A stretch of 64,000 bases of DNA from Sulfurivirga sp. Its GTDB lineage: Bacteria > Pseudomonadota > Gammaproteobacteria > Thiomicrospirales > Thiomicrospiraceae. Below the pieces are notes generated by a model. The model saw nothing but the letters and a program-made list of their open reading frames with translations, was not told the origin of the DNA and did no database searches. Every line of letters starts with the position of its first letter. Within the stretch, counting starts at the first letter, position 1. Of the stretch, positions 12,041 to 55,361 are shown in pieces. The DNA is taken from the NCBI RefSeq assembly GCF_015490265.1, contig NZ_WFYD01000062.1, positions 3,748 to 67,747 of the forward strand, written 5' to 3'. The translations under genes were made by a program, and so were the position numbers.

Positions 12041-12478
12041 ATGAGCGGCCGGCTGCCGGCCGAGCTGCTGCTGGACTGGGGTGAACCCGTCTGGCGGCTG
12101 CGAGACGGGGTCTCCCCCATTTTTGCAGGCCGCCGTGCCGGCGCGCCGGTTGCGTCCGAGGACAATGCCCCGCAGAACCCCGGTTTTGCGGGGTTTTTCG
12201 TCCCTGAGGCGCTGGATGCGCAGGAAAGCGCCCTGCTGTCTGCCATCGAACGGGTGTTTCCCCAACTGGGCGCGCGTTGTGCGCTGGAGGATCCGGCGCC
12301 GCTGCTGGAGGCGGACGGTGGCCGGGCGGTCATCTTCGGCGAGGCGGACTGGCTGGCGGACGCCGATGAACTGCCGGTGCGCCTGTGTGTCGTGCCCGCT
12401 CTCGGCCAGATGCTGGAAGACCCGCTGGCCAAGAAGCGCGCCTATCTTGCCCTGCTGAACTTCCTTGCCGACGCATGA
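12041..12478 (+). CDS. holD: DNA polymerase III psi-subunit-like protein (tentative), carrying an in-frame copy of the dispersed repeat
   Basis: Its stop overlaps the rimI start (ATGA), matching the holD-rimI arrangement in enterobacteria. The N-terminal LLLDWGEPVWRLR resembles E. coli psi LQQLGITQWSLRR. The C-terminal VPALGQMLEDPLAKKRAYLALL resembles SPALTDLRANPTARAALWQQI. Codons 22 to about 53 are encoded by repeat copy 12105-12200. Confidence 0.5.
   Translation: MSGRLPAELLLDWGEPVWRLRDGVSPIFAGRRAGAPVASEDNAPQNPGFAGFFVPEALDAQESALLSAIERVFPQLGARCALEDPAPLLEADGGRAVIFGEADWLADADELPVRLCVVPALGQMLEDPLAKKRAYLALLNFLADA
12105..12200 (+). repeat. dispersed repeat unit (forward orientation) lying inside the holD-like ORF
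   Basis: The core ACGGGGTCTCCCCCATTTTTGC is at 12105-12126. It is followed by a GC-rich arm (GCCGCCGTGCCGGCGCGCCG) and the hairpin CCCCGCA/TGCGGGG plus TTTTT at 12168-12198. Confidence 0.8.
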
Positions 12479-12945
12479 GTTGCTTTTCCCATCTGCGTGT
12501 CATGGACGTGGACGATCTGGACTGGGTGGAATCCGTGGAGCGGCGCTGCTACCCCATGCCCTGGTCCCGTCGTGGACTGGAACTGGCGCTACGCAACGGG
12601 CTGGGCTTCATCTTCTGCGCCGCCGATGAAACGCCACTGGGCTACTGCTTCGTGCAGACGGCGGCCGACGAGGTGGAACTGCTCAACTTCGCCGTGGCTC
12701 CGCAGCAGCAGGGACGGGGTGTCGGCAGCGCGGCGCTGCGGGCGCTGCTGGGCCGCTTCGAAGGCGGGCGCTTCGCCCAGATGTTTCTTGAAGTGCGCGC
12801 GTCCAACACGCCCGCCATCCGTCTCTACCAGCGCGCCGGCTTCAACGAGATCGGCCTGCGTCCCGGCTACTACCGCAACCCCGACGGCAGCCGCGAGGAC
12901 GCCGTGCTGATGGCCCACACCTTTCTGCCCGACTTTCCAGCCTGA
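12475..12945 (+). CDS. rimI: ribosomal-protein-alanine N-acetyltransferase
   Basis: It has the GNAT motif LLNFAVAPQQQGRGVGSAALRALL...FLEVRASNTPAIRLYQRAGFNEIGLRPGYY. The ATG at 12475 overlaps the upstream stop. Confidence 0.85.
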   Translation: MSCFSHLRVMDVDDLDWVESVERRCYPMPWSRRGLELALRNGLGFIFCAADETPLGYCFVQTAADEVELLNFAVAPQQQGRGVGSAALRALLGRFEGGRFAQMFLEVRASNTPAIRLYQRAGFNEIGLRPGYYRNPDGSREDAVLMAHTFLPDFPA

Positions 12946-12974
12946 AAAGCCTGCCTGAAATCGGGGAAAGCGTG

Positions 12975-13345
12975 GCGATTTTCCGCCGCGACAGACCACC
13001 GTCCGGCAAAAATGGGGGAGACCCCATCGTCAGGGCGCTTTCAGCATGGCAGGGCGACTTCTGCGGTGTCGTGCCGTTCGCCGGTGGCGGTGACCGTGGC
13101 GTATCGGGTCGGCCTGCAACAATGGAGGGCGCCACACCGGAAAAAATCGACGGAAGGCCGCATTTCCCCCTGTTTTCCGCCAGGCCGCCGGCGCGGTTGC
13201 GCGGCGGACCGTATAAACGGGAGAGACCCCGTTCAGTGGGCGTTGCGGGGCGGAAAAGGGTTGTTGGGCGGGCTTTTTCCGATGTGCCGCGGGCGGGTCG
13301 GACAGGCATTGGGCAAAAATGGGGGAGACCCCGTGTGGGACGGTG
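12975..13345 (-). repeat. array of dispersed repeat units (reverse orientation): type A, type B, type A
   Basis: Cores are GCAAAAATGGGGGAGACCCCAT at 13006-13027, type B GTATAAACGGGAGAGACCCCGTTCAGTGGGCGTTGCGGGG at 13211-13250, and GCAAAAATGGGGGAGACCCCGT at 13313-13334. Each is preceded by a TTTTCCG...GCCGC arm. Confidence 0.85.
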
Positions 13346-13387
13346 TCTGCCGGTTGCCCGGCAGAGCCTTTGAGAAGCCTCGGCCAC

Positions 13388-14761
13388 TCAGTGACCGCCG
13401 TGGCCGAGGCTGCGGGCGTAGAGGGTGAGGGCAAACAGAGCCAGATAGCCCCAGATGACCAGCCCGGCCAGCAGGGTGGCGCCGGTCAGGCGCAGACCGG
13501 TCAGCCCCAGCTGTTTCAGCTGGCGCACCAGCACCCACAGGGCGGCGATGGCGGCCAGCACATTGAACAGATTGAAGGCGCGCAGCCACGGGTCATGGCG
13601 GAAGCTGGCCCAGGGTTCCGCCGTCTGGGGCAGACCCACCAGCCAGTAGAAGGCGTTCTGCAGATCCGGCGCGTAGTGCAGGAAGAAGAAGGCGCCCACA
13701 TGGCTGAGGGCGCCGATGAGCATCAGCGGCCCGAGCGCCAGTCCGGCGTGGTCGAACATCTGCCAGAAGGGCACGCGGGCAAATCGGGCCGCCAGCCAGA
13801 AGCCGCCGAACACCAGCGCCAGAGTGCCGGCGGTGGCGGTGACCAGCGCACTGAAACCCACCCAGTCCAGCCCACCGAAATCCGGCAGGTGAGCGGCCAG
13901 CCAGTGGCCCATCTGCACCCACGGCAGCTGTTCCTTGAGGGCGGAATGCCCCAGAGCGTGATGCAGGCGCATGGTCATGGTGATGACAATCAGCAGGGTG
14001 AGAAACACCCACACGGTCATGCGCCGGTCCAGTTTTCCGGAATGGCTCAGCTGGGTCATGGGCGGCACCAGATCCCACCGGACGGCGCTGCAGGCCTGCG
14101 CGCAGTCCATGCAGGTGGTGCAGTCCTGCATGTCGTTCTTCTGCTCGAACAGGTAGGGGCGCAGTTTCCACTGGCACGCCTTGACGCAGTCGAAGCTGCG
14201 GCAGCTGGTGCAGCGGCTCTGGTCCGTCTCCAGCCGGGCGAAGCCCACCTTGCTGAACGCCTTGGTGACGCTGCCGATGGGGCACAGATAGCGGCAGTAG
14301 TCCATGTTGCGGTAGCGGTAGAACATGAACCAGGCCAGCAGGGTCAGCGCCAGAAAGTAGCTGGCGGTGACCAGCGGGTTTTTCAGCAGCCCCGGCCACA
14401 GGTAGAGCGGCACCCAGTAGCTGACCACCAGCAGTCCCAGCCCCCACCAGCGGTTGCGCAGCCAGTTGGGCATCAGCTTTTGCGGCCCGGACCGGTTGAG
14501 CCAGCGACCGATGAAGCTGTGGGGGCAGATCATGCAGAACACCGGCCCCAGCGTCACCATGGTGGTGATGAGAAAGAAGGGCCAGAACAGTGACCAGAAC
14601 AGCGCCGTGGTGTAGGGGTTCTCCTCCGCCTTCGGGTAGATGAAGCCGAAGGCGATGGCGGAGAGAAACAGCAGCAGCACCGCGGCCCGCAGGCCCTCCA
14701 GCAGCGCGTGGCGGCGCAGCAGCGGGCCGATCAGCGGCCAGTCGAGCAGGTTGCGGGTCAT
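13388..14761 (-). CDS. integral-membrane 4Fe-4S (polyferredoxin) protein, NapH/MauN/YccM-like
   Basis: 457 aa with about 10 predicted TM helices. Cys motifs are FCMICPH, CRYLCPIG, CTSCRSFDCVKAC and CTTCMDCAQAC, which is the pattern of membrane-bound NapH-type Fe-S proteins. Confidence 0.7.
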   Translation of the reverse strand: MTRNLLDWPLIGPLLRRHALLEGLRAAVLLLFLSAIAFGFIYPKAEENPYTTALFWSLFWPFFLITTMVTLGPVFCMICPHSFIGRWLNRSGPQKLMPNWLRNRWWGLGLLVVSYWVPLYLWPGLLKNPLVTASYFLALTLLAWFMFYRYRNMDYCRYLCPIGSVTKAFSKVGFARLETDQSRCTSCRSFDCVKACQWKLRPYLFEQKNDMQDCTTCMDCAQACSAVRWDLVPPMTQLSHSGKLDRRMTVWVFLTLLIVITMTMRLHHALGHSALKEQLPWVQMGHWLAAHLPDFGGLDWVGFSALVTATAGTLALVFGGFWLAARFARVPFWQMFDHAGLALGPLMLIGALSHVGAFFFLHYAPDLQNAFYWLVGLPQTAEPWASFRHDPWLRAFNLFNVLAAIAALWVLVRQLKQLGLTGLRLTGATLLAGLVIWGYLALFALTLYARSLGHGGH

Positions 14762-14773
14762 GGCCGGATGTCC

Positions 14774-16879: not shown

Positions 16880-17214
16880 GATGGACTCCTTTTTCATATT
16901 GCAGACCCTAAACACTGATGGATGTGCGGGTATTAGACGATTGAGTGTTCGGGAAAAGTCTGAAGAAAGCCTTGAAACAGGCTTGCGAAAGTATTGAGGT
17001 GGCAGGATGGGGATTGACAGCCGGTTTGAGATTTGTTGCCACTGTTGCCGCCTGCCTGGAGAACGGATGACCAGGGCTGAAGGTGACAGGCCGTGACGCT
17101 GCATTCGGAGCAGGTCGCACGGCAAAAGGGCGCTCGTCACACCGGAAAAGCCGGCTGACCGCGCATTTCCACGCCATGCTCCGCTCGGCCATCAGCGCGG
17201 TTGTACGGCAGGCT

Positions 17215-17345
17215 GTAAAAACGGGGGAGAGCCCGTTCAGCGGGCATTGCGGGGTGGGATATAGCCACGGAAAGGGCGTTTTTCCGGCACGCCGCAGGCG
17301 CGTCAGACGGGCGTTCGCTAAAAACAGGGGAGACCCCGTGCGGAG
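17215..17345 (-). repeat. composite dispersed repeat (type B plus type A, reverse orientation), homologous to 13211-13345
   Basis: Cores are type B GTAAAAACGGGGGAGAGCCCGTTCAGCGGGCATTGCGGGG at 17215-17254 and type A GCTAAAAACAGGGGAGACCCCGT at 17317-17339. The spacing of about 100 nt matches the 13.2 kb locus. Confidence 0.85.
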
Positions 17346-17380: not shown

Positions 17381-18184
17381 TCAGGTGCGGTATTCCTGCG
17401 GAATGGTGCGGGCGATCACTCTGGCCATCTCGCGGAGCATGGCCGGGTTGGCCGCCAGAATGTTGCCGGACTTGAGGAAGTTCTCGCCCCCGGCAAAATC
17501 GGTGACGATGCCGCCGGCTTCGCGCACGATCAGCGCACCGGCCGCGATGTCCCATGGGCGCAGGTTGAACTCCCAGTAGCCGTCCACCCGTCCGCAGGCC
17601 ACATAGGCCAGGTCCAGCGCGGCGGAGCCGGGACGGCGGATGCCCGCAGTATGCATCATGAAGTGGCGCAGGCTGGCCATGTAGCTGTCCACGAAGTCGA
17701 ACTCCCGGTAGGGGATGCCGGTGGCCAGCAGCGCCTGTTCCAGCCGCCGCGTCTCGCTGACGCGGATGCGGCGGTTGTTGAGCCGTGCCCCTTCACCCCG
17801 GCTGGCGGTGAACAGCTCATCCCGGATCGGGTCGTAGATGACGGCGTGCTCCAGCCGTCCCCTGATGCGGATGGCGATGGAGACGGCGAAGTGGGGAAAG
17901 CCGTGCAGGAAGTTGGTGGTGCCGTCCAGCGGGTCAATGATCCACTCCGCCTCGGCGTTCTGCACCCGTCGGCCGTGACCCTCCTCCGCTATAATGCTGT
18001 GCTTCGGGTAATACTTCTCGATGGTGTCCACGATGGCCCGTTCGGCCTCGCGGTCCGCCTCGGAGACAAAGTCGTTGTAGGCCTTCTGTTCAACATTCAG
18101 GCGGTCGAGGTCGTCAAAGTGGCGGCGCAGCAGGCCGCCGGCCTTTTCGGCCGCCCGGATGGCGATGTTCAGATAGGGATGCAT
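17381..18184 (-). CDS. suhB: inositol monophosphatase family protein SuhB
   Basis: MHPYLNIAIRAAEKAG, WIIDPLDGTTNF and AAGALIVREAGG are present. The ATG is at 18184, and the track ORF extends further upstream than I think is real. Confidence 0.9.
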   Translation of the reverse strand: MHPYLNIAIRAAEKAGGLLRRHFDDLDRLNVEQKAYNDFVSEADREAERAIVDTIEKYYPKHSIIAEEGHGRRVQNAEAEWIIDPLDGTTNFLHGFPHFAVSIAIRIRGRLEHAVIYDPIRDELFTASRGEGARLNNRRIRVSETRRLEQALLATGIPYREFDFVDSYMASLRHFMMHTAGIRRPGSAALDLAYVACGRVDGYWEFNLRPWDIAAGALIVREAGGIVTDFAGGENFLKSGNILAANPAMLREMARVIARTIPQEYRT

Positions 18185-21118: not shown

Positions 21119-22194
<1,076 letters not shown>

Positions 22195-25384: not shown

Positions 25385-26933
25385 CGTCACACGCACGCAG
25401 GATGAGGCGCTTCGCCGCGCGCTAGAAGGGGCCCAGCCGGAAGAGCAGTCTGCTGAACGGCAGCCGTTGCCTCAGCCGGCATCCCGGCGCAAGCGCAAGC
25501 CGGTGGTGGCGCTGGTGGGGCGGCCCAACGTGGGAAAGTCCACGCTGTTCAACCGCCTGACCAAGAGCCGTGATGCCATCGTGGCCGACTACCCGGGGCT
25601 GACCCGCGACCGCCAGTATGGCACCGGCAAGGTGGGACGCTTCCCCTACATCGTGGTGGATACCGGCGGTCTCAGCGGCGAGGAGCAGGGTGTGGACCCG
25701 CTGATGGAACAGCAGGTGCGTGCCGCGCTGGAAGAGGCGGACGCCATTCTCTTTCTGGTGGACGCGCAGGCGGGCCTGACGCCGGCGGATGAACAGATTG
25801 CCGATATGCTGCGCCGCCACTACGGCGACAAGCCGCTCTACGTGCTGGTCAACAAGGCGGAAGGGCGCGATGCGGACAGCGTCCGCGCCGAGTTCTTCGG
25901 GCTGGGGCTGGGCGAGCCGCTGGTCATCTCCGCCGAGCACGGCGACCATGTGCGCGAGACCATCGACCATGTGCTGGAGATCGTCGAGCCGCGCCTGCCG
26001 GAGGATGATCAGCCGCTGCCGGATGAGCAGGGCGGCATCCGCGTGGCGGTCATCGGCCGGCCCAACGTGGGCAAGTCCACCCTCATCAACCGCATGATCG
26101 GCGAGGAGCGGGTGGTGGCCTATGACATGCCGGGCACCACCCGCGACAGCATCCGCGTGCCCTTCGAGCGGGACGGGCAGCGCTACACGCTGATCGACAC
26201 CGCCGGGGTGCGCCGCCGCAAGAAGGTGTCCGACCGCATCGAGAAGTTCAGCGTCATCAAGGCCATCGAGGCCATGGATCAGGCTCATGTGGTGGTGCTG
26301 GTCATCGACGGCTCCGAGGGCATCACCGACCAGGATCAGACCCTGCTGGGCCATGCGCTGGAATCCGGCCGTGGGCTGATCATCGCCATCAACAAGTGGG
26401 ATGGGCTGGATCCCGACCAGCGCCGGCAGGTGAAGGCGGATCTGGACATCAAGCTGCAGTTTGCCGAGTTTGCCCCGCGCCATTTCATCTCCGCGCTGCA
26501 CGGTACCGGCGTGGGCAACCTGTTCGACACCATCCGCAAGGTGTATGAAGCGGCCACCCGGCGGGTGTCCACCAGCCAGCTCAACCGGGTGCTGGAGCAG
26601 GCGCTGCTGGAGCATCAGCCGCCGCTGGTCAGCGGCCGGCGCATCAAGATGCGCTACGCTCATCTGGGCGCCCTCAACCCGCCGACGGTGGTGATCCACG
26701 GCAACATGGTGGACCGGGTGCCCCAGCACTACACCCGCTATCTGACCAATGTCTTCCGCAAGGCGTTCGGCTGGCAGGGCACGCCGGTGAAGATCGAATA
26801 CCGCGTGACCGAGAACCCCTACGAGGGCCGACGCAGCAAGATGACCCGCCGCCAGATCGAGCGCAAGCGCAAGCTGATGGCCTTCGTCAAGCAGAAGAAA
26901 AAGGCCCTGCAGCGCAAGAAACGCGGCAGATGA
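25377..26933 (+). CDS. der: ribosome-associated GTPase Der (EngA), two G domains plus KH-like domain and a basic tail
   Basis: Two GxxxxGKS motifs are present ([14 protein letters not shown] and [14 protein letters not shown]). The first 42 codons have atypically AT-rich third positions, so the real start may be the GTG at 25503. Confidence 0.9.
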
Positions 26934-26985: not shown

Positions 26986-27029
26986 GTGGACGTGTGCTAA
27001 AATTGCCGGCTTTTCATTGATTTGGAGCG

Positions 27030-43968: not shown

Positions 43969-44301
43969 TCAGGAGCCTTTCAATGCTTCCAGTGCGGCTT
44001 GTGGGGCCCGGTCCAGCACGCGCAACAGTGCCTGCGCTGCTCCGGTCGGGCTGCGTTTGCCCTGCTCCCAGTTGCGCACGGTTTCCACGGAAACATGGAT
44101 GCAACGCGCAAAGGCCTGCTGGCTGAGGCCCAGCTTGTGGCGAACATGACGGGCGTAGCGGGCTGCATCTTCACGTGCGGCCCGCTCGTCTTCTGCCATC
44201 TGGCGGGCAATATCGATTTCACTGGTGGCGTCCACCCGCTCGGAATCGATGCGCCCTACGGGCTGATGACCTTCAAGTCTGATGCGAACAGTCTTTCCCA
44301 T
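43969..44301 (-). CDS. XRE-type HTH antitoxin partner of the BrnT-like toxin
   Basis: The C-terminal HTH reads LGLSQQAFARCIHVSVETVRNWEQGKRSPTGAAQALLRVL. The ATG at 44301 lies inside the 3' end of the toxin gene (29-nt overlap). Confidence 0.75.
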   Translation of the reverse strand: MGKTVRIRLEGHQPVGRIDSERVDATSEIDIARQMAEDERAAREDAARYARHVRHKLGLSQQAFARCIHVSVETVRNWEQGKRSPTGAAQALLRVLDRAPQAALEALKGS

Positions 44302-44557
44302 ATTTTCGAACCTCCCGTCTGTTGGCTTTGCGGGCTGAGATAATCCGAATGGCCTGACCACGGGGTGTGTAGACCACAACGAACAGGCGTCCTTCGATGC
44401 AGCCATACACCCGAAACCGCTGCTCGCCATATTCGTATCGAGCATCCGGTTCTTCTACACGGTTGGGATCAAAGAAGATGCGGGCTGCGTAAAGGAAGTC
44501 AAAGCCCCGTTCCCGAAAACAGCGTTCGCTTTTTTCCTCGTCCCACTCGAATTCCAT
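44273..44557 (-). CDS. brnT: BrnT-family toxin (DUF497 ribonuclease)
   Basis: MEFEWDEEKSERCFRERGFDF, FFDPNRVEEPDARYEYGEQRF and VVVYTPRGQAIRIISARKANRREVRKY match the DUF497 pattern. Confidence 0.8.
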   Translation of the reverse strand: MEFEWDEEKSERCFRERGFDFLYAARIFFDPNRVEEPDARYEYGEQRFRVYGCIEGRLFVVVYTPRGQAIRIISARKANRREVRKYGKDCSHQT

Positions 44558-44594
44558 GGAGTGAGTATAGCATGTGTAGGCCTCTGAACCATGT

Positions 44595-45188
44595 TCATGC
44601 ATGCAGCCAGTTCAGCCAGCCATGAGTAAGCGTGTATCCGGCACCCACCCAGAAGCCGGCCCAGAGGAGGGAGGCGACAAGGCTGCGCAGCGCGAAGGGC
44701 GCCCAGCGGATGCCGCTGATGCCGGCCATGGGAGGGGCGGCGGTGCGGCTGACCGGGTTGAACTTGGCCACCAGCAGCGCCAGCGCCAGATAGCGGTGCA
44801 GCTGGTGCTGCAGGGCGTCCACGCTTTCGTCGCGCAGGTGGAGGCGGCGTTGCAGCCAGCTTCTTGCCGGCGTGCCGATCTGCCGGCCGAGCAGGTAGCC
44901 GATCTGGTCGGCCAGTGCCGAGCCTGCGGCCGCGCTCAGCCAGACGCCGATGAAGGAGAGCTGACTCTGGTGGGCGCTGTAGCCGAGAAAGGCCAGCAGC
45001 GGCTGCACCAGAATGAGCGTGCCGATCACAGGCAGGTTTTCCACCGCCACCACCACGGCCAGTGCCATATAGAAGCTTGAGCCGTGGTGGGCGTTGAGCC
45101 AGCCAATCCAGTCGAATTCCAACGGGGTCTCCTCTGATTTTGCCGAGTGCCGGTCTGCCGCGCCGGGCGCGCGCTTGCGGCGGATCAA
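44595..45188 (-). CDS. DedA / SNARE-associated family membrane protein
   Basis: VENLPVIGTLILVQP, DQIGYLLGRQIG and LVAKFNPVSRTAAPPMAGISG are present. The first 22 codons of the track ORF run through a repeat copy. A TTG at 45122, 5 nt after GGAGA (which is part of the repeat core), is an alternative start. Confidence 0.7.
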   Translation of the reverse strand: MIRRKRAPGAADRHSAKSEETPLEFDWIGWLNAHHGSSFYMALAVVVAVENLPVIGTLILVQPLLAFLGYSAHQSQLSFIGVWLSAAAGSALADQIGYLLGRQIGTPARSWLQRRLHLRDESVDALQHQLHRYLALALLVAKFNPVSRTAAPPMAGISGIRWAPFALRSLVASLLWAGFWVGAGYTLTHGWLNWLHA

Positions 45189-45206
45189 TTATCGCCCCAT
45201 TTTTGC
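45122..45206 (+). repeat. dispersed repeat unit (forward) plus a partial second core
   Basis: The core ACGGGGTCTCCTCTGATTTTGC is at 45122-45143. A partial core ATTATCGCCCCATTTTTGC is at 45188-45206. Confidence 0.7.
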
Positions 45207-45258
45207 CGCAAGGCACGGTTGTGGCGTTAAACTCGTAAAAAAATCCGGAGTGCGATGC

Positions 45259-47826
45259 ATGGAGAAGACCGAACACGTCTATCCCTGTCTGGACAGTGAG
45301 ACGGCGGAGCAGAAGCTCAGTGAGGTCGGCCCCAACGAGATCCGCGAAAGGAGCGTGCCCGGGTGGCTGCGGCTGCTCAGGCGCTTCTGGGGGCCGATTC
45401 CGTGGATGATCGAGGTGGCGGCCATGCTCTCCGCGGCGGTGCAGCGCTGGGAGGATTTCACCATCATCATGATTCTGCTGCTGGTCAACGCCATTGTGGA
45501 TTTCTATCAGGAATCCAAGGCGCTCAGCGCGGTGGCGGCGCTGAAGAAGAAGCTGGCGCGCACGGCCATCGTCTGCCGGGACGGCCAGTGGCAGACGATT
45601 CCGGCGCGGGAGCTGGTGCCGGGGGATGTGATCCGTCTGCGCATCGGCGACATTGTGCCGGCGGACGCGAAGCTGCTGGATGGCGACTATCTGCTGGTGG
45701 ATCAGTCGGCGCTGACGGGGGAATCCCTGCCGGTGCAGAAGCGCGCAGGTGACGAGCTGTATGCCAACAGCGTCATCAAGCAGGGGGAGATGGTGGCGCA
45801 GGTGACCGCCACCGGCGCCAACACCTTCTTCGGCAAGACGGTCAAGCTGGTGGCCCGGGCGGAGCGGGAGGCGCGCAGCCACTTCCAGCGCATGGTCATC
45901 CGGGTGGGCAACTTCCTCATCGCCATCACGCTGGTGATGGTGGCCATCATCGTGGCGGTGGGGCTGTGGCGGCACGAGTCGCCCATCGAGCTGCTCATCT
46001 TCTCGCTGGTGCTGACGGTATCGGCCATTCCGGTGGCCATGCCGGCGGTGCTGACGGTGACCATGGCGGTGGGGGCCATGGCGCTGGCGCGGCGGCAGGC
46101 CATCGTCAGCCGGCTGGCGGCCATCGAGGAGCTGGCGGGCATGGACGTGCTCTGCTCCGACAAGACCGGCACTTTGACCCAGAACCGCATGACCCTGGCC
46201 GAGCCGTGGCTCTATGGCGAGCACACGGCGGAGGAACTGTTCCTCATGGCGGCGCTGGCCAGCCGACGGGAGAACAACGATCCCATCGAGCAGCCGATTT
46301 TTCAATGGCTGGAGCAGAACGGACTGAGCGAGCGGCTGAACGGCGCGCGGGTGGAAAGCTTCATTCCCTTCGACCCGGTCCGCAAGCGCACCGAGGCGAA
46401 GGTGGCGCTCGATGGCGAAACCCTCACCGTGGTCAAGGGGGCGCCGCAGGTGGTGCTGGGCCTGTGCGAGCTGCCGCTGGAGAAGCGGGAGCAGGTGCAG
46501 GCGGCCATCGATGCGCTGGCTGCAGACGGCTACCGCACGCTGGGCGTGGCGGTGAGGCGGGAGAAGAGCGACCGCTTCGACCTCATCGGCCTGATCCCGC
46601 TGTTCGACCCGCCGCGGGAGGATTCCCGCGAGGCGGTGCGGCAGGCCAAGGCGCAGGGGGTGACGGTGAAGATGGTCACCGGCGACAACCTGGCGGTGGC
46701 CCGCCACATCGCCCGCATGCTGGACATTGGCGACAACATCCTTGACGTGCGCGAGCTGCGTGGCCAGTCCATGGAGGAATATCTGGTGCTGGCGGAGGTG
46801 CTCTCCGAGGCCTTCGTCAAGGTGCTGGGGGCGGCGCGCAGCGAGGAAGAAATCCGGCGTCTGAGCCGCCAGATCGTGGAGACGGTCAAGGATGAGCTGC
46901 ATCAGCGCCCGCTGCCGAGCGGCTCGGTGCGGCGGCACGAGTCGGAGATCATCCGCCTGATCGAGCAGGCGGACGGCTTCGCGCAGGTGTTCCCTGAGGA
47001 CAAGTATTTCATCGTCGATGAGCTGCAGAAGGCGGATCACATCGTCGGCATGACCGGCGACGGGGTCAACGACGCCCCGGCGCTGAAGAAGGCCGACTGC
47101 GGCATCGCGGTGGAAGGGGCCACCGACGCAGCGCGGGCGGCGGCGGACATCGTGCTCACCCAGCCGGGGCTGAAGGTGATCGTGGAGGCGATCGATGTGG
47201 CGCGGGTCACCTTCGAGCGCATGAAGAGCTACACCATCTACCGCATCGCCGAGACGCTGCGCATCATCTTCTTCATGACGCTGGCGATCACCATCTTCCA
47301 GTTCTATCCGGTGACGGCGATCATGATCATCCTGCTGGCGCTGCTCAATGACCTGCCGATTCTGATGATCGCCACCGACAACACCCACCACCCGCAGCAC
47401 CCGGTGCGCTGGGACATGCACGAGATGCTGGTGCTCTCCAGCTGGCTGGGGCTGGCGGGGGTGGTCTCGTCCTTCACGCTGTTCTGGATCGTGATGACCT
47501 GGTTCAACCTGCCGCATGAGTTCATCCAGACGCTGTTCTTCACCAAGCTGGTGGTGGCGGGGCACAACACCATCTTCAACACCCGCATCGACACCTGGTT
47601 CTTCAGACGGCCCTGGCCTTCGGCCAAGCTGTTCTGGACTTCTCAGGCCACGGCGCTGATCGGTACGGTCATCGCCGTCTATGGCTTCGGGCTGATCACG
47701 CCCATCGGCTGGCAGTGGGCGGGCATCATCTGGGCCTACGCGCTGGCGTGGTTTGTGTTCAATGACGCGGTCAAGGTGGCGGTGGTGCGCTACTACCGCC
47801 GCAGGAAGGGGGTTGACGTGCTATGA
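45259..47826 (+). CDS. plasma-membrane-type proton-efflux P-type ATPase (type IIIA-like)
   Basis: CSDKTGTLTQNRM, MVTGDN and MTGDGVNDAPALKKADCGIAV are present. The N-terminal GPNEIRERSVPGWLRLLRRFWGPIPWMIE is typical of H+-ATPases. Confidence 0.85.
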   Translation: MEKTEHVYPCLDSETAEQKLSEVGPNEIRERSVPGWLRLLRRFWGPIPWMIEVAAMLSAAVQRWEDFTIIMILLLVNAIVDFYQESKALSAVAALKKKLARTAIVCRDGQWQTIPARELVPGDVIRLRIGDIVPADAKLLDGDYLLVDQSALTGESLPVQKRAGDELYANSVIKQGEMVAQVTATGANTFFGKTVKLVARAEREARSHFQRMVIRVGNFLIAITLVMVAIIVAVGLWRHESPIELLIFSLVLTVSAIPVAMPAVLTVTMAVGAMALARRQAIVSRLAAIEELAGMDVLCSDKTGTLTQNRMTLAEPWLYGEHTAEELFLMAALASRRENNDPIEQPIFQWLEQNGLSERLNGARVESFIPFDPVRKRTEAKVALDGETLTVVKGAPQVVLGLCELPLEKREQVQAAIDALAADGYRTLGVAVRREKSDRFDLIGLIPLFDPPREDSREAVRQAKAQGVTVKMVTGDNLAVARHIARMLDIGDNILDVRELRGQSMEEYLVLAEVLSEAFVKVLGAARSEEEIRRLSRQIVETVKDELHQRPLPSGSVRRHESEIIRLIEQADGFAQVFPEDKYFIVDELQKADHIVGMTGDGVNDAPALKKADCGIAVEGATDAARAAADIVLTQPGLKVIVEAIDVARVTFERMKSYTIYRIAETLRIIFFMTLAITIFQFYPVTAIMIILLALLNDLPILMIATDNTHHPQHPVRWDMHEMLVLSSWLGLAGVVSSFTLFWIVMTWFNLPHEFIQTLFFTKLVVAGHNTIFNTRIDTWFFRRPWPSAKLFWTSQATALIGTVIAVYGFGLITPIGWQWAGIIWAYALAWFVFNDAVKVAVVRYYRRRKGVDVL

Positions 47827-50246
47827 AGTTCATCAAGTGGTTTGCCGAGATCGGCGCGCAGGACGTGCTGGAAGTGGGGGGCAAGAACGCCAATCTGGGG
47901 GAGATGTATCGGGCGCTGACACCGCTGGGCGTGCGGGTGCCCAACGGTTTCGCCGTCACCGCGGCGGCCTACCGTCATCTGCTGGACGTGCATGGGGCCT
48001 GGGACAGGCTGCATGAACTGCTGGACGACATCGACCCCGATGATGTGGCCCAGCTGCAGCAGCGGGGGCAGGCGGCGCGGGCACTGATCCTGTCGCTGGA
48101 GCTGCCGGCAGAGATCCGGGAGGAGATTCTCGCCGGCTATGCGAAACTGCGCGAGGAGTATGGCGACACCCTGTCGCTTGCGGTGCGCAGCTCCGCCACG
48201 GCGGAGGACTCGCCCGGCGCCTCCTTCGCCGGCCAGCACGACACCTACCTGAACATTCAGGGCGATGAGGCGCTGCTGGACGCCTACCGACGCTGTCTCG
48301 CCTCCCTGTTCACCGACCGGGCCATCCACTACCGCATTGACAAGGGCATCAGCCACTTCACCACCTGGAACGCCGTTACCGTGATGAAGATGGTGCGCTC
48401 CGATGTGGGGGCCAGCGGAGTGATGTTCTCGCTGGATACGGAGACCGGCTTTCGTGACGTGGTGTTCATCAATGCCGCTTACGGTCTGGGTGAGAATGTG
48501 GTGCAGGGGGCGGTGGATCCCGACACCTTCTATGTGCACAAGCCCACCTTCGAGAAGGGGCATCGGGCGGTGCTCAAGCGTCGGCTGGGGCGCAAGCAGA
48601 TCAAGATGATCTTCTCCGACACCCTCAATACCGACAACATCGCCGTGGAGTTCACCCGCAATGTGGATACCACCCCGGAGGAGCGCCAGCGCTACGCCCT
48701 GACCGATGAGGAGGTGATGGTGCTGGCCGACTACGCCATCAAGGTGGAGCGCCATTATCGGGAGCAGGTCTATGGCCACGACCAGCCCATGGACATGGAG
48801 TGGGCCAGGGACGGGCTGGACGGGCAGCTCTACATGGTGCAGGCCCGTCCAGAGACGGTTCACTCCGTGCGCAGAGGCACGGTGCTGACCCGTTACGTGC
48901 TGGACGAGACCGGGCCGGTGCGCATCGAAGGGCTGGCGGTGGGCACGAAAATCGCCGCCGGCCCCGTGCGGGTGATCCGGGATGTGAGCGAGCTGGACAG
49001 CTTCCGGGATGGCGAAGTGCTGGTGGCCGACATCACCACGCCCGACTGGGAGCCGGTGATGCAGCGGGCCAGCGCCATCGTCACCAACCGGGGCGGGCGC
49101 ACCTGCCACGCCGCCATCGTGGCGCGGGAGCTGGGCCTGCCCGCAATCGTGGGCACGGGCAACGCCACCGAAGTGCTGCGCAATGGCGAAGAGGTGACCG
49201 TCTCCTGCGCCGAGGGCGAGGTGGGCCGCGTCTATGCCGGCCGGCTCAAATGGCATGTGGAAAAGACCGATCTCAGCCAGCTCCCCCGTCCGAAGACGGA
49301 GCTGATGCTTAACGTGGGCAATCCCGATCTGGCCTTCTCGCTGGCGGCATTGCCCGCCGACGGTGTCGGCCTTGCGCGCATGGAGTTTGTCATCAACAAC
49401 GCCATCAAGGCGCATCCCAGGGCGCTGCTGGAAATGGACCGGCTGGATGCGGACATCCGCGCCCGGATCGAGCAGCTTCTGGTGCCTTTTGATGGGGATG
49501 CCGAGCGCTTTTTCATCACCACCCTGTCGGAGGGCATCGCCACCATCGCCGCCGCCGTATGGCCCAGGCCCTGCGTGGTGCGCACTTCCGATTTCAAGTC
49601 CAACGAATACGCCCAGTTGATCGGCGGAGACGTTTTTGAGCCGCAGGAGGCCAACCCCATGCTCGGCTTCCGCGGCGCCGCCCGCTATGTGGATCCGGAC
49701 TACCGGTCCGCCTTCGCACTGGAGTGCGCCGCCATCAGGCGGGCGCGGGAGGTGATCGGCATGGACAACATCATCCCCATGATTCCCTTCTGCCGCACGG
49801 TGAAGGAGGCGGAGCAGGTGGTCGAGGTGCTGGCGGAAAATGGGTTGAAGCGGGGTGAGAACGGCCTTCAGATCTACATGATGTGCGAGATTCCCAACAA
49901 CGTCATTCAGGCCGATGCCTTCGCCCGCCATTTCGATGGCTTCAGCATCGGTTCCAACGACCTGACCCAGCTCACCCTGGGCGTGGATCGGGATTCCGAC
50001 AGGGTGGCGCGGGACTATGACGAACGTGATCCCGGCGTGCTGGAGATGATCCGTCTGGCCATCGAGGGCTGCCGCCGCAACGGCATCCATTCCAGCCTGT
50101 GCGGACAGGCCCCGTCCGACTATCCGGAAGTGGCGGAGTTTCTGGTGCGCCATGGCGTTGACGCCATCAGCCTCAACCCGGATGCCTTTCTGCTCACCTG
50201 GCAGCGAGTGGTCGAGGTGGAAAGGGCGCTGGCGGCACAGGCCTGA
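47823..50246 (+). CDS. ppsA: phosphoenolpyruvate synthase
   Basis: VGGKNANLGEM is present, with the phosphohistidine region TNRGGRTCHAAIVARELGLPAIVG and the C-terminal PEP-utilising domain GFSIGSNDLTQLTLG. The ATG overlaps the ATPase stop (ATGA). Confidence 0.95.
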   Translation: MKFIKWFAEIGAQDVLEVGGKNANLGEMYRALTPLGVRVPNGFAVTAAAYRHLLDVHGAWDRLHELLDDIDPDDVAQLQQRGQAARALILSLELPAEIREEILAGYAKLREEYGDTLSLAVRSSATAEDSPGASFAGQHDTYLNIQGDEALLDAYRRCLASLFTDRAIHYRIDKGISHFTTWNAVTVMKMVRSDVGASGVMFSLDTETGFRDVVFINAAYGLGENVVQGAVDPDTFYVHKPTFEKGHRAVLKRRLGRKQIKMIFSDTLNTDNIAVEFTRNVDTTPEERQRYALTDEEVMVLADYAIKVERHYREQVYGHDQPMDMEWARDGLDGQLYMVQARPETVHSVRRGTVLTRYVLDETGPVRIEGLAVGTKIAAGPVRVIRDVSELDSFRDGEVLVADITTPDWEPVMQRASAIVTNRGGRTCHAAIVARELGLPAIVGTGNATEVLRNGEEVTVSCAEGEVGRVYAGRLKWHVEKTDLSQLPRPKTELMLNVGNPDLAFSLAALPADGVGLARMEFVINNAIKAHPRALLEMDRLDADIRARIEQLLVPFDGDAERFFITTLSEGIATIAAAVWPRPCVVRTSDFKSNEYAQLIGGDVFEPQEANPMLGFRGAARYVDPDYRSAFALECAAIRRAREVIGMDNIIPMIPFCRTVKEAEQVVEVLAENGLKRGENGLQIYMMCEIPNNVIQADAFARHFDGFSIGSNDLTQLTLGVDRDSDRVARDYDERDPGVLEMIRLAIEGCRRNGIHSSLCGQAPSDYPEVAEFLVRHGVDAISLNPDAFLLTWQRVVEVERALAAQA

Positions 50247-50335: not shown

Positions 50336-50700
50336 ACGGGGTCTCCCCTGATTTTGCCCGACGCCGTGTCACCGCGCTGCCAGCGCGCCGCAAAAATGCC
50401 TGCAAAAGTTGCTTCCATGCCGGAAAGGGGCCGTCAGAACGGGGTCTCCCCCGATTTTGCAGGCTGCCCGTGTCGCCCCGCTGCGGAAAACCACCGTCAT
50501 GCCGCCTCTGAAGGTTTTTTCGCCCGGAAAAGGTATGGGCAACGGGGTCTCCCCTCATTTTGGCAAGTGTCCTGCCACCGCACCGGGAAAAAATCCGCAG
50601 AAGTGGACTGTTCACGCCGGATAAGCCGGTCTGCAACGGGGTCTCCCCCATTTTTGCCGAATGCCGTCCGACCGCGCCTCGCGCGTGCCGGAAAAAACGC
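50336..50700 (+). repeat. tandem array of four dispersed repeat units (forward orientation), periods of about 103, 103 and 94 nt
   Basis: Cores are at 50336-50357, 50439-50460, 50542-50564 and 50636-50657 (ACGGGGTCTCCCC[CT][GCA][AG]TTTTG[G]C). Each is followed by a GC-rich arm ending in CCGGAAA(A). Confidence 0.9.
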
Positions 50701-50714
50701 TGCTGGGAGGCGTT

Positions 50715-51887
50715 TCAACCGGTCTTGCGCACCAGCATGGCCGCCAGCAGGATGAAGGTGCCGGAGCAGAGCAGCACCATCTCCATGCCGCCCGCCTGAT
50801 AGAGCGCGCCGGAGAGCACCGTACCCAGCAGCCGCCCGCCGGCATTGGCCATGTAGTAGAAGCCCACATCCCTGGAAACCCCATCCTCCGTGGCCATGGC
50901 CACCACCAGATAGGAGTGCACGGCGGAGTTGAGGGCGAACAGCACGCCGAACAGCGCCAGACCGATCAGCAGCGTGGCGGTGGGAGAGAGCGGAAACAGC
51001 GCCGCCATGGCGAAGGGCACGGCGGCGAGTACGAAGGCCAGCAGACTGGCGGTGCCCGCCGTGGGGTGGGGGGTCAGCCGGGCGGTCAGCCGGGGGCTGA
51101 TGCCCTGAATGAAACCGTAGCCGATGACCCAGGTGGCGAGAAAGCCGCCGCTCTCAACAAACGACCAGCCGAGCACGCCTTCCAGATAGACCGGCAGCGC
51201 CACTACGAACCATACATCCCGCGCCGAAAACAGAAAGAAGCGCGCCGCAGACAGCCAGTTGAGCGCGGCGGACTTGGAAAAAATCTCGCGGAACCGGCTT
51301 TTGGCCTTTGCCTTGCCCAGATCGGTCCTGAGCCAGATGAGCGAGCCGGTCAGCACCACCGCCAGCATGGCAGAAAGCAGCATCAGTGCCGGGCGGAAGC
51401 CGATCCACTCCAGCAGCGCCGCACCTACGAAGAAGCCCACGCCTTTCAGGGCATTCTTGGAGCCGGTCAATGCCGCCACCCAGCGATAGAGCTGGCCGGA
51501 GGCATCATCCGCCAGCAGCTTGACGCTGGATTTGGCCGACATCTTGTTGAGATCCTTGGCGATGCCGGAGAGCATCTGGGCGAACATCACCCAGGCCACG
51601 GACAGATACTGATCGGGCACGGTCAGCATCATCAGCGCCACGATCTGCAACGCCAGTCCCATGTTCATGGTGCGGTTGAGGCCATGGCGCGCCCCCAGCC
51701 AGCCGCCGACGAGGTTGGTGAACACGCCGGCCAGCTCGTAGAGGATGAACAGAGTGGCGATGGCGAACGGCGAATAGCCCAGCTGGTAGAAGTAGAACAG
51801 CACCAGCATGCGGATGGCGCCGTCGGTGATGGTGAAGGCCCAGTAGTTGCCGGTGATGAGGGCGTACTGCTTCAGCCGGGGCGACAT
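50715..51887 (-). CDS. MFS transporter, ArsJ-like (tentative family assignment)
   Basis: 390 aa with 12 TM helices. From memory, the N-terminal YALITGNYWAFTITDGAIRMLVLFYFYQLGYSPFAIATLFILYELAGVFTNLVGGWLGAR resembles the ArsJ organoarsenical efflux family. GAGGAG lies upstream of the ATG at 51887. Confidence 0.6.
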   Translation of the reverse strand: MSPRLKQYALITGNYWAFTITDGAIRMLVLFYFYQLGYSPFAIATLFILYELAGVFTNLVGGWLGARHGLNRTMNMGLALQIVALMMLTVPDQYLSVAWVMFAQMLSGIAKDLNKMSAKSSVKLLADDASGQLYRWVAALTGSKNALKGVGFFVGAALLEWIGFRPALMLLSAMLAVVLTGSLIWLRTDLGKAKAKSRFREIFSKSAALNWLSAARFFLFSARDVWFVVALPVYLEGVLGWSFVESGGFLATWVIGYGFIQGISPRLTARLTPHPTAGTASLLAFVLAAVPFAMAALFPLSPTATLLIGLALFGVLFALNSAVHSYLVVAMATEDGVSRDVGFYYMANAGGRLLGTVLSGALYQAGGMEMVLLCSGTFILLAAMLVRKTG

Positions 51888-52207
51888 GGCGTGCTCCTCA
51901 GCGCGCGGCGGCCCGGTTGAGCCGGCCCACCTTGCGCGCCAGCACCGGCGGCGGCAGAAGCCGCCTGATGGCCGCATGAATCTTCATGATGCATCTGCCT
52001 TTATTCGTTTATGCGGATAAGGGAACTCTATAAGCATGATGTATGGTGAAGCATGAACATTTTGTGACAGGGCGTCCCGGGCCGTGAGTGATGCGGGGAG
52101 ACGGACGCTGATGGCACCGTCGCTCTGGGGGGTCTAACGGCTTTTGCCGGGCACCGGGCAGGAACGCCTGTGCGGGCGGATGAGGGCGGTGGCAGAGGTC
52201 GTGCCGG

Positions 52208-54579: not shown

Positions 54580-54896
54580 GCCACTGCGCCCTGCCGGTTC
54601 AGGGGGAGATCATCAACGACCACCGTTCGGACTGGCCGCTGATCGAGCTGACCCTCTACGGCAGCCGCAACGAGACGGCCAAACTGGCCAAACGGGTCAA
54701 CTGCGCCCTGCGCACGTTGCCGTTGCGGGCGCGGCTGCACTATGTGCGCGACCCGCTGGCCTGGGCGGAGGCGGGCATCGGGCGGCTGCCGGCGCTGGCC
54801 GCGCCCGGCTGGCGGCACGAGGGCTGGCTGAGCACGGAGGAGATCGCCCGCGCGCTGGCGGCGCTGACAGATGGCAAGGAGGGAGAAGGAGCATGA
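54576..54896 (+). CDS. hypothetical protein; apparent CxxC-less paralogue of the preceding thioredoxin-fold gene
   Basis: The GTG overlaps the upstream stop (GTGA). IELTLYGSRNETAKLAKRV...GRLPALAAPGWRHEGWLSTEEIARAL aligns by eye with IKVLGSGCANCQTTARLIEEV...MSTPGVVIDGKVVHAGGVPGRDQIAGWL. Confidence 0.4.
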   Translation: MSHCALPVQGEIINDHRSDWPLIELTLYGSRNETAKLAKRVNCALRTLPLRARLHYVRDPLAWAEAGIGRLPALAAPGWRHEGWLSTEEIARALAALTDGKEGEGA

Positions 54897-55256
54897 AACG
54901 GACGGTTCTTCTGGCGGGAATGCTGCTGAGCGCGGCAAACGGCTGGGCCGGTCGTGGCTCGAACTGATCCTGTGGACTTTGCCCAAGTGGGGCTGGAGGA
55001 GGGCATGGGGCTGCGCGAGGCGCTGCTCAAGGCGGTGGACCTGCGCACCCGGCCCATCCTCATGACCGCCACCGCGGCGGGCGTGGGCATGATCCCCATC
55101 GCGCTGGAGTGGGCGGTGGGCATCGAGCGCCTGTCACCGCTGGCGGTGGTGGCCATCGGTGGCCTGATTACCGGCACCTTCCTCACGCTGGTGGTGGTAC
55201 CCGTGTTCTTCCACCTGCTGGAGAGTGCCAGGCACCGCATTTATGCAAAATATTGA
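54893..55256 (+). pseudogene. remnant of a heavy-metal RND efflux operon: a 24-codon signal-peptide stub followed by the last ~90 codons of a CzcA/CusA-type pump
   Basis: The stub MKRTVLLAGMLLSAANGWAGRGSN* (54893-54967) is followed by the frame 54954-55256, which encodes REALLKAVDLRTRPILMTATAAGVGMIPIAL...VVAIGGLITGTFLTLVVVPVFFHLL. That is the C-terminal TM11-12 region of RND permeases. Confidence 0.65.
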
Positions 55257-55280
55257 TGCAAATCAGTCAAAAAGTGATTA

Positions 55281-55305
55281 AAAGGGGCTCCGCGCCCCTT
55301 TTTTC
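55281..55305 (+). terminator. rho-independent terminator after the RND remnant
   Basis: The sequence is AAAGGGGC-TCCGC-GCCCCTTTTTT. Confidence 0.7.
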
Positions 55306-55317
55306 ATGGGAATTTCA

Positions 55318-55361
55318 CACGGCGAAAAATTGCCGCTGTGCAAAAATAGGGGAGACCCCAT
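55318..55361 (-). repeat. single dispersed repeat unit (reverse orientation)
   Basis: The core GCAAAAATAGGGGAGACCCCAT is at 55340-55361. Confidence 0.75.

Follow-up and report, generated by a model that had tools for sequence, protein, structure and literature searches.

Repetitive extragenic palindromes (REPs) lie mainly between convergent or co-directional open reading frames (ORFs), within about 20 bp of the 3' ends of upstream genes, where they sometimes supply the stop codon, and those found inside genes are common in genes of DNA synthesis and repair (Di Nocera et al. 2013, PMC3733652). Ribosome stalling by REPs situated 15 nt or less from a stop codon is among the findings cited in PMC12306157. 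In neisserial intergenic mosaic elements (NIMEs), copies of a conserved 20-bp repeat alternate with variable spacers of 50-150 bp, for which 'specific physical or conformational properties' have been suggested, the repeat itself being a suggested recombinase site (PMC1797815). Here, a repeat family is described from a 64-kb stretch of Sulfurivirga sp. DNA of approximately 64% GC (contig NZ_WFYD01000062.1; hereafter the window), in which it amounts to 15 copies at 8 loci, one partial head and two decayed heads, the head being the conserved start of each unit (Table 1). The family is real and confined to one bacterial lineage; its location at gene ends and its copies inside genes match known REP behaviour, while its structure differs from that of REPs bearing the characteristic tags. 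No paper describing repeats in Sulfurivirga was found in the literature. With a probability of roughly 0.5, the family is read as small interspersed repeats of the kind that includes REPs, bacterial interspersed mosaic elements (BIMEs) and NIMEs, serving one lineage as punctuation at gene 3' ends, where the head, once transcribed, would work as a protective hairpin or a weak terminator and, if next to the stop codon, would be coupled to it.

The 22-mer ACGGGGTCTCCCCCATTTTTGC matched the window ten times with up to three mismatches, against 0.00 matches expected. For its 11-mer core GGGGTCTCCCC, one mismatch being allowed, 15 matches compare with an expectation of 2.26, and 100 shuffled sequences gave 5 at most; the number of copies thus exceeds chance, and the original prediction is confirmed. 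A profile hidden Markov model built from full units (nhmmer, E ≤ 1e-3) recovered exactly 15 copies in the window, the same set as the core search, and a copy was present at every position that had been listed beforehand. The partial copy previously placed at 45188 does exist, but at 45195-45213 and as half a head, CCCCATTTTTGCCGCAAGG. Together, the units cover approximately 1.4 of the 4.4 kb of intergenic DNA of the window. No tRNA or tmRNA was found in the window.

The head comprises 28 nt, (g)ACGGGG(T/C)CTCCCCC(A/G)(T/A)TTTTGC(A/C)GG(G/A)T(G/C), in which a small G/C hairpin is followed by a T-run. When 63 copies were aligned on the core, information rose from about 0.1 to 2.3 bits at the AC preceding GGGG, giving a sharp 5' boundary; the conserved span runs from -2 to +26 and decays beyond, in agreement with the profile, and the 3' end is fuzzy. 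The body that follows is GC-rich and diverged, with an A-run (GGAAAAA) fixed at +56 to +61 and, near +79, a T-run. The unit profile could be aligned over 80-100 positions with most copies, so whole units are homologous, and the longer unit that had been proposed around each core is confirmed. Units are about 95 nt in length and successive heads are always arranged head-to-tail, in arrays of up to four units in the window, with 65-75 nt between heads. Lengths fall into two classes, 92-94 nt (8 cases) and 102-104 nt (13 cases), which account for 21 of 23 units. The units show no coding potential, since 15 of the 23 lengths are not multiples of three and the bodies lack a 3-nt periodicity.

Body identity averages 43% (36% in shuffles) and 48% within the same array. 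Non-orthologous bodies do not exceed 71% identity, except for one local tandem duplicate inside dnaX (88%), and therefore give no sign of recent transposition. Orthologous bodies are 86-93% identical, and heads stay near-identical while bodies drift. A block of some 300 nt, made up of an A unit, a B unit and a decayed head, recurs at the 13.1-13.3 kb and 17.1-17.3 kb loci, with 81% of aligned columns identical between the two; a second subtype recognised earlier at 13211 and 17215 is real and corresponds to the B unit of this block.

Gene calls in the window were based on Pfam and on the annotation of metagenome scaffold L032, which is 99.5-99.9% identical to window positions 12057-33477 (L-numbered sequences are stretches from related genomes and metagenomes compared with the window). 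Although intergenic DNA makes up 6.9% of the window, it holds 14 of the 15 heads and seven of the eight loci (binomial P = 5e-8 by locus); the sole head outside it, at 12105, lies within a conserved ORF. Six of the eight loci are co-oriented with the upstream gene, namely leuA, a Fer4-domain gene, suhB, der, the cytochrome b561 gene and ppsA, the copy associated with leuA sitting in the next ORF downstream. In the sister genome, the metagenome-assembled genome (MAG) 'Thiotrichales bacterium' JALVTA01, approximately 14 of 19 arrays run in the direction of the gene upstream, according to crude calls based on the G+C content of third codon positions (GC3). Eight of 42 array starts lie no more than 9 nt past a co-oriented ORF of at least 115 codons. 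At gene 3' ends most copies are in sense orientation, and of the six copies within genes five are antisense; this fits a signal that does no harm, or is of use, behind a gene but is detrimental in front of it or within it. The copies had been described as lying between housekeeping blocks and accessory modules; their intergenic position holds, but they are better placed downstream of genes, between convergent or co-directional genes.

The other two loci are 45122, in a divergent region, and 55361, antisense between two plus-strand genes, and at both a reverse-complemented head (GGAGA) directly precedes a start codon. At 45122 the reverse complement, GAGGAGACCCCG, is the Shine-Dalgarno sequence for the TTG start (45113) of a DedA/VTT gene on the minus strand. 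At 55361 it reads GGGGAGACCCC and is followed immediately by the ATG of a 22-codon upstream ORF (55360-55428, +), which overlaps the start of an AhpC-like gene at 55400. Both copies are kept in the sister genome, where bodies are 93% (L023) and 86% (L016) identical, respectively. These two loci and their conservation would suit a reversed head that works as an expression cassette, with an extended -10-like element (TGCAAAAAT), a transcription start and the Shine-Dalgarno sequence GGAGA, driving antisense RNAs or downstream genes. Such a cassette is very improbable, however, given that the -10-like hexamer is lost in the der orthologues L036 and L037 while hairpin and T-run are kept, that transcription from most copies would run into a convergent gene at its 3' end, that the TG occurs only in the GCAGG variant, and that the frame of the 22-codon ORF opened at 55360 is not kept in the sister genome (indel in L016).

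Heads also recur at orthologous sites. The spacer between der and the DUF3683 gene was obtained from four more species with GC contents of 52-60%, whose Der proteins are 80-88% identical, and a head-like hairpin with a T-run lies 0-3 nt past the der stop in all five (the window, L035, L036, L037/L038 and L039; Table 1); species with a der head thus range in GC content from 52 to 65%. Neither Thiomicrorhabdus chilensis nor Hydrogenovibrio marinus carries a head after der. A second orthologous site, downstream of rsgA/cytochrome b561 and facing a conserved membrane ORF of 59-62 aa, bears heads in the window, in L036 (1 nt past the rsgA stop) and in L039. At the suhB locus, gene order differs where relatives are without the repeat. 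Head variants are shared between loci of the same lineage. In the window lineage, the consensus 22-mer is found unaltered in the der copy and in the copy within a holD-like ORF (TCT loop, CATTTTTGC); in L033, L035 and L043 the holD and der copies share another variant, GGGGGTCCCCC(T)GAAA(A)TTTT; and both copies share TCCCCGACTTTTT in L036 and TTTTTCAAAGTCG in L039. Judged by sequence comparison, the changes of the head are concerted evolution, resting on few loci (two loci in two lineages). Heads that stay constant or change together while bodies drift indicate constraint at the level of sequence, or homogenisation.

Two further observations concern these sites. An extended -10-like motif, TGCTAAAAT, lies at 26995-27003 in the der spacer, before the 1287-aa DUF3683/FAD-oxidase gene; because it is kept in relatives (L035, TGCTAAAAT; L037, TGATAAAAT; L039, TGGTAGAAT), this gene probably has its own promoter directly past the der head. 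The membrane ORF of the window (34928-35107, +; 59 aa, MLIIIRFWLFV...), overlooked by the GC3-based gene caller, has approximately 70% identity in L035, L036 and L039 and converges on the repeat array at the cytochrome b561 gene, with whose second unit it has the terminator at 35118-35143 in common.

Beyond the window, the head pattern was scanned against one genome per species. Among the matches listed, 27 of 31 stretches belong to the sister MAG, which carries at least 45 heads on these 27 stretches and two of whose contigs are 89-92% identical to the window. Matches in Rothia, Aminicenantia and a gammaproteobacterium of 51% GC were discarded as chance matches or ordinary terminators. The nearest named relatives by Der identity are Thiomicrorhabdus, Hydrogenovibrio and Thiomicrospira (approximately 70%). 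Head density is about 1 per 4 kb in the window against about 1 per 10-20 kb in the relatives, the family being expanded in the high-GC lineage. The head type of the window had no matches in IMG/VR viral contigs or JGI metagenome contigs. A second metagenome scan, with the head type of L033/L035, yielded 46 contigs, most of them representing one unrelated AT-rich repeat family. In these JGI contigs (L044-L089) the pattern GGGGGTCCCCC(N)GAAAWTTTT matches an abundant repeat in DNA with a GC fraction of about 0.42-0.50, which has long conserved flanks (...GCTAGCGCACACCCCAACTGGGAC-GGGGGTCCCCC-...AATCGTGAAAATTTAAAATTTGGCTTAAAATTCAGCG...).

Folding of 61 units with RNAalifold gave a 4-bp GGGG/CCCC head helix only and no covarying base pairs, and an extended 6-bp head helix was no better than in shuffles. 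Folding z-scores averaged approximately -0.8 for whole units and -0.3 for bodies; neither body self-complementarity nor closure between T-run and A-run (12 of 63 units) supported a global structure. Rfam yielded no match for the whole window at gathering thresholds, and the four-unit array gave matches at chance level only at E ≤ 10. The structured RNA that the original prediction had offered as one option is therefore not borne out. A structured small RNA family or an array resembling clustered regularly interspaced short palindromic repeats (CRISPR) is barely credible for the same reasons, even if a conserved repeat of about 28 nt alternating with variable 65-75-nt 'spacers', and units of which some end in a terminator hairpin, recall one: there is no room for a promoter in each unit, the 'spacers' show homology among themselves and have the fixed A-run in common, and no cas domains were found in the window proteins scanned. 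CRISPR proper was ruled out on the homology of the 'spacers', alongside their length and the occurrence of arrays of 2-4 units at many loci. A sigma-54 promoter was rejected by eye on the misfit of the GG-N10-GC register, and integron attC sites, dif/Xer sites, integration host factor (IHF) sites and iterons were likewise dismissed by eye.

Predicted free energies of the head hairpin range from -6.8 to -9.9 kcal/mol for the window lineage and from -5 to -12.9 kcal/mol for the relatives. The hairpin is followed by T5-7 in every lineage, often after a spacer of 2-3 nt or more. The head resembles an intrinsic terminator in presenting a G/C hairpin and then a T-run, in sense orientation downstream of genes, and the der copy of L037 (AAGGGG-TCTC-CCCCTT-TTTTT) is a plausible small terminator. 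It differs in its stem of mostly 4 bp, in the frequent gap before the T-run, and in a degree of conservation beyond what a terminator needs. A scan for the terminator consensus (stem of at least 5 bp) flagged heads solely through an alternative GAGAC/GTCTC pairing. Other parts of the window do contain canonical terminators, some of them closing units (12168-12193, 35118-35143 and 55280-55302). A terminator hairpin was found at the unit 3' end in 21 of 63 regions, against about 3 expected; as a general 3' end of the unit it was rejected, being limited to these 21 regions, in several of which the hairpin is the next head.

The periodicity of the bodies was analysed with the T-run of the head left out, taking as tracts runs of at least four A or T. 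Tracts are confined to 31-35, 47-50, 56-60, 68-71, 79-81 and 88-92 nt from the unit start, with a best period of 10.7 nt (R = 0.75; 99.9th percentile of the null maximum, 0.29). Within single units, AT/GC autocorrelation peaks at lags of 10-12 and 20-22 nt with an amplitude of 0.22, whereas 200 sets of control windows gave amplitudes of 0.004 or less and a 3-nt coding period only. With 10.3 bp per turn, the two length classes (about 93 and 103 nt) correspond to 9 and 10 helical turns, and the other head spacings of 113, 186 and 205 nt likewise fit whole turns. All of these statistics are inflated by the shared ancestry of the units. This phasing predicts DNA that is probably curved, with successive heads on one face. 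Phased tracts and whole-turn lengths lend support to the protein-binding option put forward at the outset, taken here as a possible protein-binding or architectural site, and on this sequence-based evidence the arrays probably add a DNA-architectural role to the punctuation of gene ends.

A purely architectural site at the level of DNA would go further: curved arrays would bind a nucleoid protein or gyrase, as do BIME-2 and the IHF sites of BIMEs, and relieve or insulate supercoiling behind transcription units, the RNA hairpin being incidental. The phasing and the quantised lengths agree with it, as do the lack of excess RNA folding in the bodies and the position of copies between convergent or co-directional genes; gyrase sites have flanks with a periodicity of about 10.5 bp, and BIMEs bind gyrase and IHF. 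Against this, a symmetric site would not give an orientation bias with respect to the upstream gene, the phasing may stem from slippage of a sub-repeat, and single heads such as that of der are conserved without an array. As a full account it appears quite improbable.

The ORF that holds the 12105 unit (12041-12478, +) lies between leuA and rimI and is kept open in eight homologues down to 44% identity. It had no match in Pfam, NCBIfam or PDB sequence searches; in its AlphaFold model residues 1-46, which include most of the unit, are disordered and precede a confident α/β domain, whose top two PDB structural matches are both the ψ subunit of Escherichia coli DNA polymerase III (3sxu_B, probability 0.87; 1em8_D, 0.72), with weak E-values. 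On the basis of this model the ORF is probably a divergent holD. In four lineages it bears a whole unit, consisting of head, A-rich stretch, terminator-like hairpin and a T-run that encodes the invariant residues G-F-F-V; from one lineage to another, two compensatory pair changes distinguish the arms of this hairpin (CCCCGCA/TGCGGGG versus GCCCTGAAA/TTTCAGGGC). Within the window, the heads at 12105 (+) and 13027 (-) form an inverted pair, 78% complementary over 46 nt and 833 nt apart, that flanks the 3' part of the holD-like ORF and rimI; two separate arrays probably happen to lie in this way, without forming a composite element.

In relatives, in-gene copies always occur at interdomain linkers. 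The dnaX gene (τ) of JALVTA01 (L010 3627-5969, +) contains three antisense units between domains III and V, all of which read as G-K-N-G-G-(G/D)-P-V-S, and a uvrD-like gene of the same MAG (L031 2-1768, +) has one antisense unit in the linker before a Tudor domain (P-A-K-M-G-E-T-P). The cysG gene of WFXP01 (L003 1454-2380, +) carries a head in its interdomain linker, yet the linker region is just 2 aa longer than in the L033 CysG (73% identical). The cysG DNA is alignable upstream of the head and clear homology resumes immediately 3' of it, which indicates that a patch of about 25-45 nt was replaced and that no unit was inserted. Rickettsia palindromic elements (RPEs), long palindromes of 100-150 bp, are comparable in that the repeat is translated in frame at tolerant protein linkers (here of the ψ-like ORF, τ, UvrD and CysG), although the present copies are read in three different frames or orientations and cysG holds a patch of head size only.

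A selfish mobile element without host function, either RPE-like or a non-autonomous miniature inverted-repeat transposable element (MITE), moved by an enzyme encoded elsewhere and persisting where tolerated, would explain the dispersal of 15 copies in 64 kb and of the heads in the sister MAG, full units in frame in the dnaX, uvrD and holD-like linkers, the block of about 300 nt common to two loci, the expansion in the high-GC lineage and the sharp 5' boundary of the head. It is nevertheless unlikely. No terminal inverted repeats were seen and no inverted head stands at the far end of the unit; near-identical copies are missing beyond orthologues and the one local tandem duplicate; heads are conserved as bodies decay, unlike neutral junk; different species have inherited the der and rsgA copies at orthologous positions; and of the window genes that were scanned none was identified as a transposase, nor did the viral contigs give any match. 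The MITE proposed among the initial options thus finds no footing in these data.

The head may alternatively be a recognition motif akin to the uptake signal sequences (USS) or DNA uptake sequences (DUS), kept and spread by uptake or recombination machinery, its terminator-like orientation being secondary to selection. In favour of such a motif, which recalls those systems in its dialects and positions, the primary sequence of some 22-28 nt is conserved while flanks drift, lineage 'dialects' are common to several loci, positions are terminator-like, and copies occupy weakly constrained coding linkers in three frames or orientations (holD-like ORF, dnaX three times, uvrD and cysG), the cysG head replacing a patch with a net gain of 2 aa. 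Three of the four host genes serve genome maintenance, and A/T tracts follow the core in helical phase, as they do in the extended Haemophilus USS. Known USS and DUS, on the other hand, occur about once per kb, so that density here is some four times lower or more; copies in the window are almost all intergenic and biased in orientation with transcription, and the flanks are homologous in units of about 95 nt that form tandem head-to-tail arrays, unlike uptake sequences. Placement within terminators is known for uptake sequences (Kingsford 2007, as listed in PMC12306157), which would favour this account. The occurrence of REPs, too, in repair genes (PMC3733652) counts against it. Overall, an uptake motif of this type is held to be improbable.

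The likeness to REPs and BIMEs is one of behaviour. Both are short and present in many copies, occupy gaps between convergent or co-directional genes near the upstream 3' end, in some cases touch or supply the stop codon, and are found within replication and repair genes; termination, mRNA stabilisation and supercoiling are among the roles proposed for REPs. The REP/BIME-like character suggested at the outset is upheld in this sense, by position at gene 3' ends, orientation bias with respect to the upstream gene, contact with stop codons and copies in replication and repair genes (cf. PMC3733652). Since most of this behaviour is that of published REPs, the novelty is moderate. In structure the family departs from tagged REPs. 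Neither the GTAG signature in the head consensus nor a transposase among the window genes scanned was found, as had been reported before, and no gene for a REP-associated tyrosine transposase (RAYT) was seen within the 64 kb. There is no GTAG/CGTC tag in a defined position of the head: CGTC occurs on the reverse strand only, on the 3' side, and only when position -3 is G. The stem is 4-6 bp (consensus helix 4 bp) against at least 8 bp in REPs, and the arrangement is head-to-tail, whereas REPs are mostly inverted dimers and their head-to-tail dimers are 'negligible'. The unit of about 93 or 103 nt, with its non-palindromic body and phased A/T tracts, is a further difference.

By analogy, the nearest architecture is that of the neisserial NIME. 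In both, a short conserved repeat (20 bp there, 28 nt here) alternates with variable spacers (50-150 bp there, 65-75 nt here) that fall into many diverged families and have a regular composition profile. The NIME repeat dRS3, however, is a symmetric ATTCCC-N8-GGGAAT palindrome, counted as a CGTC-1 REP, whereas the present head is unrelated in sequence, asymmetric and oriented with transcription, and its arrays comprise just 2-4 units at a quantised period. The IMG/VR viral contigs yielded no match, and no connection with a recombinase, a phage or surface-protein genes emerged. Mycobacterial interspersed repetitive units (MIRUs) are intergenic units of about 50-100 nt that stand head-to-tail, are co-oriented with flanking genes and abut stop codons; their copies are near-identical within an array and vary in number, and they comprise small ORFs overlapping neighbouring start and stop codons. 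The present arrays share the head-to-tail intergenic arrangement, the co-orientation and the contact with stop codons, but differ in their diverged units and in the lack of any coding signature.

If the family is gene-end punctuation, the conserved functional part would be the 28-nt head, with its GGGG-YCU-CCCC hairpin, U5 tract and GCMGGRUS. Once co-transcribed, it would fold into a short G/C hairpin (approximately -7 to -10 kcal/mol) followed by U residues, and could act as a weak factor-independent terminator, a pause site or a hairpin that protects the 3' end, with termination or stabilisation of transcripts as the outcome. A head that lies some 10 nt or less from a stop codon could interact with the ribosome as it terminates, a coupling reported for REPs, and arrays would stack several head signals. 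The A/T tracts, phased at about 10.5 bp in units of 9-10 turns, would place successive heads on the same face of probably curved DNA and may confer an added architectural or protein-binding role, comparable to the IHF and gyrase sites in BIMEs and the proposed recombinase sites in NIMEs. Tandem duplication combined with short-patch conversion or insertion may account for the spread of the family.

Several points weigh against this account. The hairpin is 4 bp in most copies, with the extra pair 2-15 unpaired in 39 of 61, and no pair varies, which leaves the head structure unsupported by covariation. In three of the five der orthologues the gap between stem and T-run is at least 3 nt, which is weak for an intrinsic terminator. 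About a quarter of the arrays have the opposite orientation, by gene calls that outside the window are crude (GC3-based) and made on genome fragments. One sense unit lies within the ORF upstream of rimI, where a strong terminator would be harmful. An 11-nt sub-repeat, CCGGAAAAANN, is visible in several bodies, and its slippage could yield phasing of about 10.5 nt without selection. The family is also without the GTAG/CGTC tags, long stems and inverted dimers that define classical REPs. Finally, conservation of the sequence over 28 nt together with the lineage variants exceeds the need of a plain terminator and thereby points to a sequence-recognising factor; these features and the patch replacement in cysG are left unexplained by a role as punctuation. 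A reading is therefore kept alive, although distinctly unlikely, in which the head is the recognition site of a co-evolving factor, such as a DNA-uptake receptor, a site-specific recombinase (the head then being an uptake signal or recombinase site) or a termination or RNA-binding protein, that writes the motif into new places and homogenises it within each lineage.

Table 1. Features of the repeat family in the window, and sequences that follow the der stop codon in five species. For the 15 copies, forward heads begin at the first coordinate and reverse heads finish at the second.
Feature	Position	Strand	Context
Full unit	12105-12199	+	Inside ψ (HolD)-like ORF 12041-12478; head 12105-12132 translated D-G-V-S-P-I-F-A-G
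Terminator-like hairpin of the 12105 unit	12168-12193	+	Followed by the T-run encoding G-F-F-V
Fer4-gene array, unit 1, A type	13241-13334	-	Downstream of Fer4-domain gene 13388-14761 (-)
Fer4-gene array, unit 2, B type	13163-13232	-	Diverged head ACGGGGTCTCTCCCGTTTATAC
Decayed head	13110-13129	-	CCCTCCATTGTTGCAGGCCG; between units 2 and 3 of the Fer4-gene array
Fer4-gene array, unit 3	12979-13027	-	Head ATGGGGTCTCCCCCATTTTTGC
suhB array, unit 1, A type	17244-17339	-	Head starts 42 nt past the suhB stop (gene 17381-18184, -)
suhB array, unit 2, B type	17180-17236	-	Head ACGGGCTCTCCCCCGTTTTTAC
Decayed head	17116-17133	-	Homologous to decayed head 13110-13129
der head	26933-26987	+	Overlaps the last base of the der stop TGA (26931-26933)
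b561 array, unit 1	35213-35296	-	Downstream of cytochrome b561 gene 35406-35924 (-)
b561 array, unit 2	35121-35204	-	Ends in bidirectional terminator hairpin 35118-35143, shared with convergent small ORF 34928-35107 (+)
Head	45122-45174	+	GGGGTCTCCTC; divergent region
Partial head	45195-45213	+	CCCCATTTTTGCCGCAAGG; lacks the GGGG arm
ppsA array, unit 1 of 4, head-to-tail	50336-50434	+	90 nt downstream of ppsA (47823-50246)
ppsA array, unit 2	50439-50537	+	Period 103 nt
ppsA array, unit 3	50542-50632	+	Period 103 nt
ppsA array, unit 4	50636-50717	+	Period 94 nt; adjoins the 3' end of convergent MFS gene 50715-51977 (-)
Unit	55282-55361	-	Antisense to both flanking plus-strand genes; far end is bidirectional terminator 55280-55302 of an AcrB-like gene
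After der stop, window			GGGGTCTCCCCCATTTTT
After der stop, L035			CAGGGGGGTCCCCCTGAAATTTTT
After der stop, L036			GGGGGTCCCCGACTTTTT
After der stop, L037/L038			GGGGTCTCCCCCTTTTTTT
After der stop, L039			GGGGGGGTCTCCCCTAATTTTT

Other features of the window were noted in passing. A pair comprising a BrnT toxin and an antitoxin with a helix-turn-helix domain (MqsA/XRE-like) lies at 43969-44602 (-), between ilvC-like and DedA-family genes. The sole break between the window and L032 falls within rlmN of the relatives, where window positions 21702-21941 correspond to L032 9646-9747 and the window is 138 nt longer; the rlmN region of L032 is called as two short ORFs, and the cause is either a deletion in one strain or a difference of assembly. 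Positions 1975-2117 and 57385-57527 are direct copies of a 143-nt repeat with 86% identity, the second of them in a gene that probably encodes a chemoreceptor. An inverted repeat of 75 nt, with 79% complementarity, lies in two GGDEF-EAL genes (31150-31224 and 62465-62539). Both repeats are probably paralogous coding segments unrelated to the head family.

About 30% of the non-coding DNA of the window belongs to a single undescribed repeat family, which genome annotation must recognise and which bears on the prediction of operon ends, 3' untranslated regions and small ORFs in these genomes. The family is also a natural experiment on the persistence of short repeats, in which the head remains constant at orthologous sites across a GC range of 52-65%, or changes in concert, as the rest decays. 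Unit lengths of whole helical turns and phased A/T tracts provide a testable link between REP-like repeats and DNA geometry. Were the head to be the site of a recognition factor, the motif would have been written even into the linkers of the essential replisome proteins ψ and τ, and the family would represent a system resembling uptake signals or NIMEs with an extended, helically phased signal of about 100 bp; to our knowledge, no such system is known in this uncultured clade of Thiomicrospira relatives, which are thermophilic sulfur oxidisers. The discovery of a head-recognising factor could bear on the old question of what maintains repeats of the REP and NIME type.

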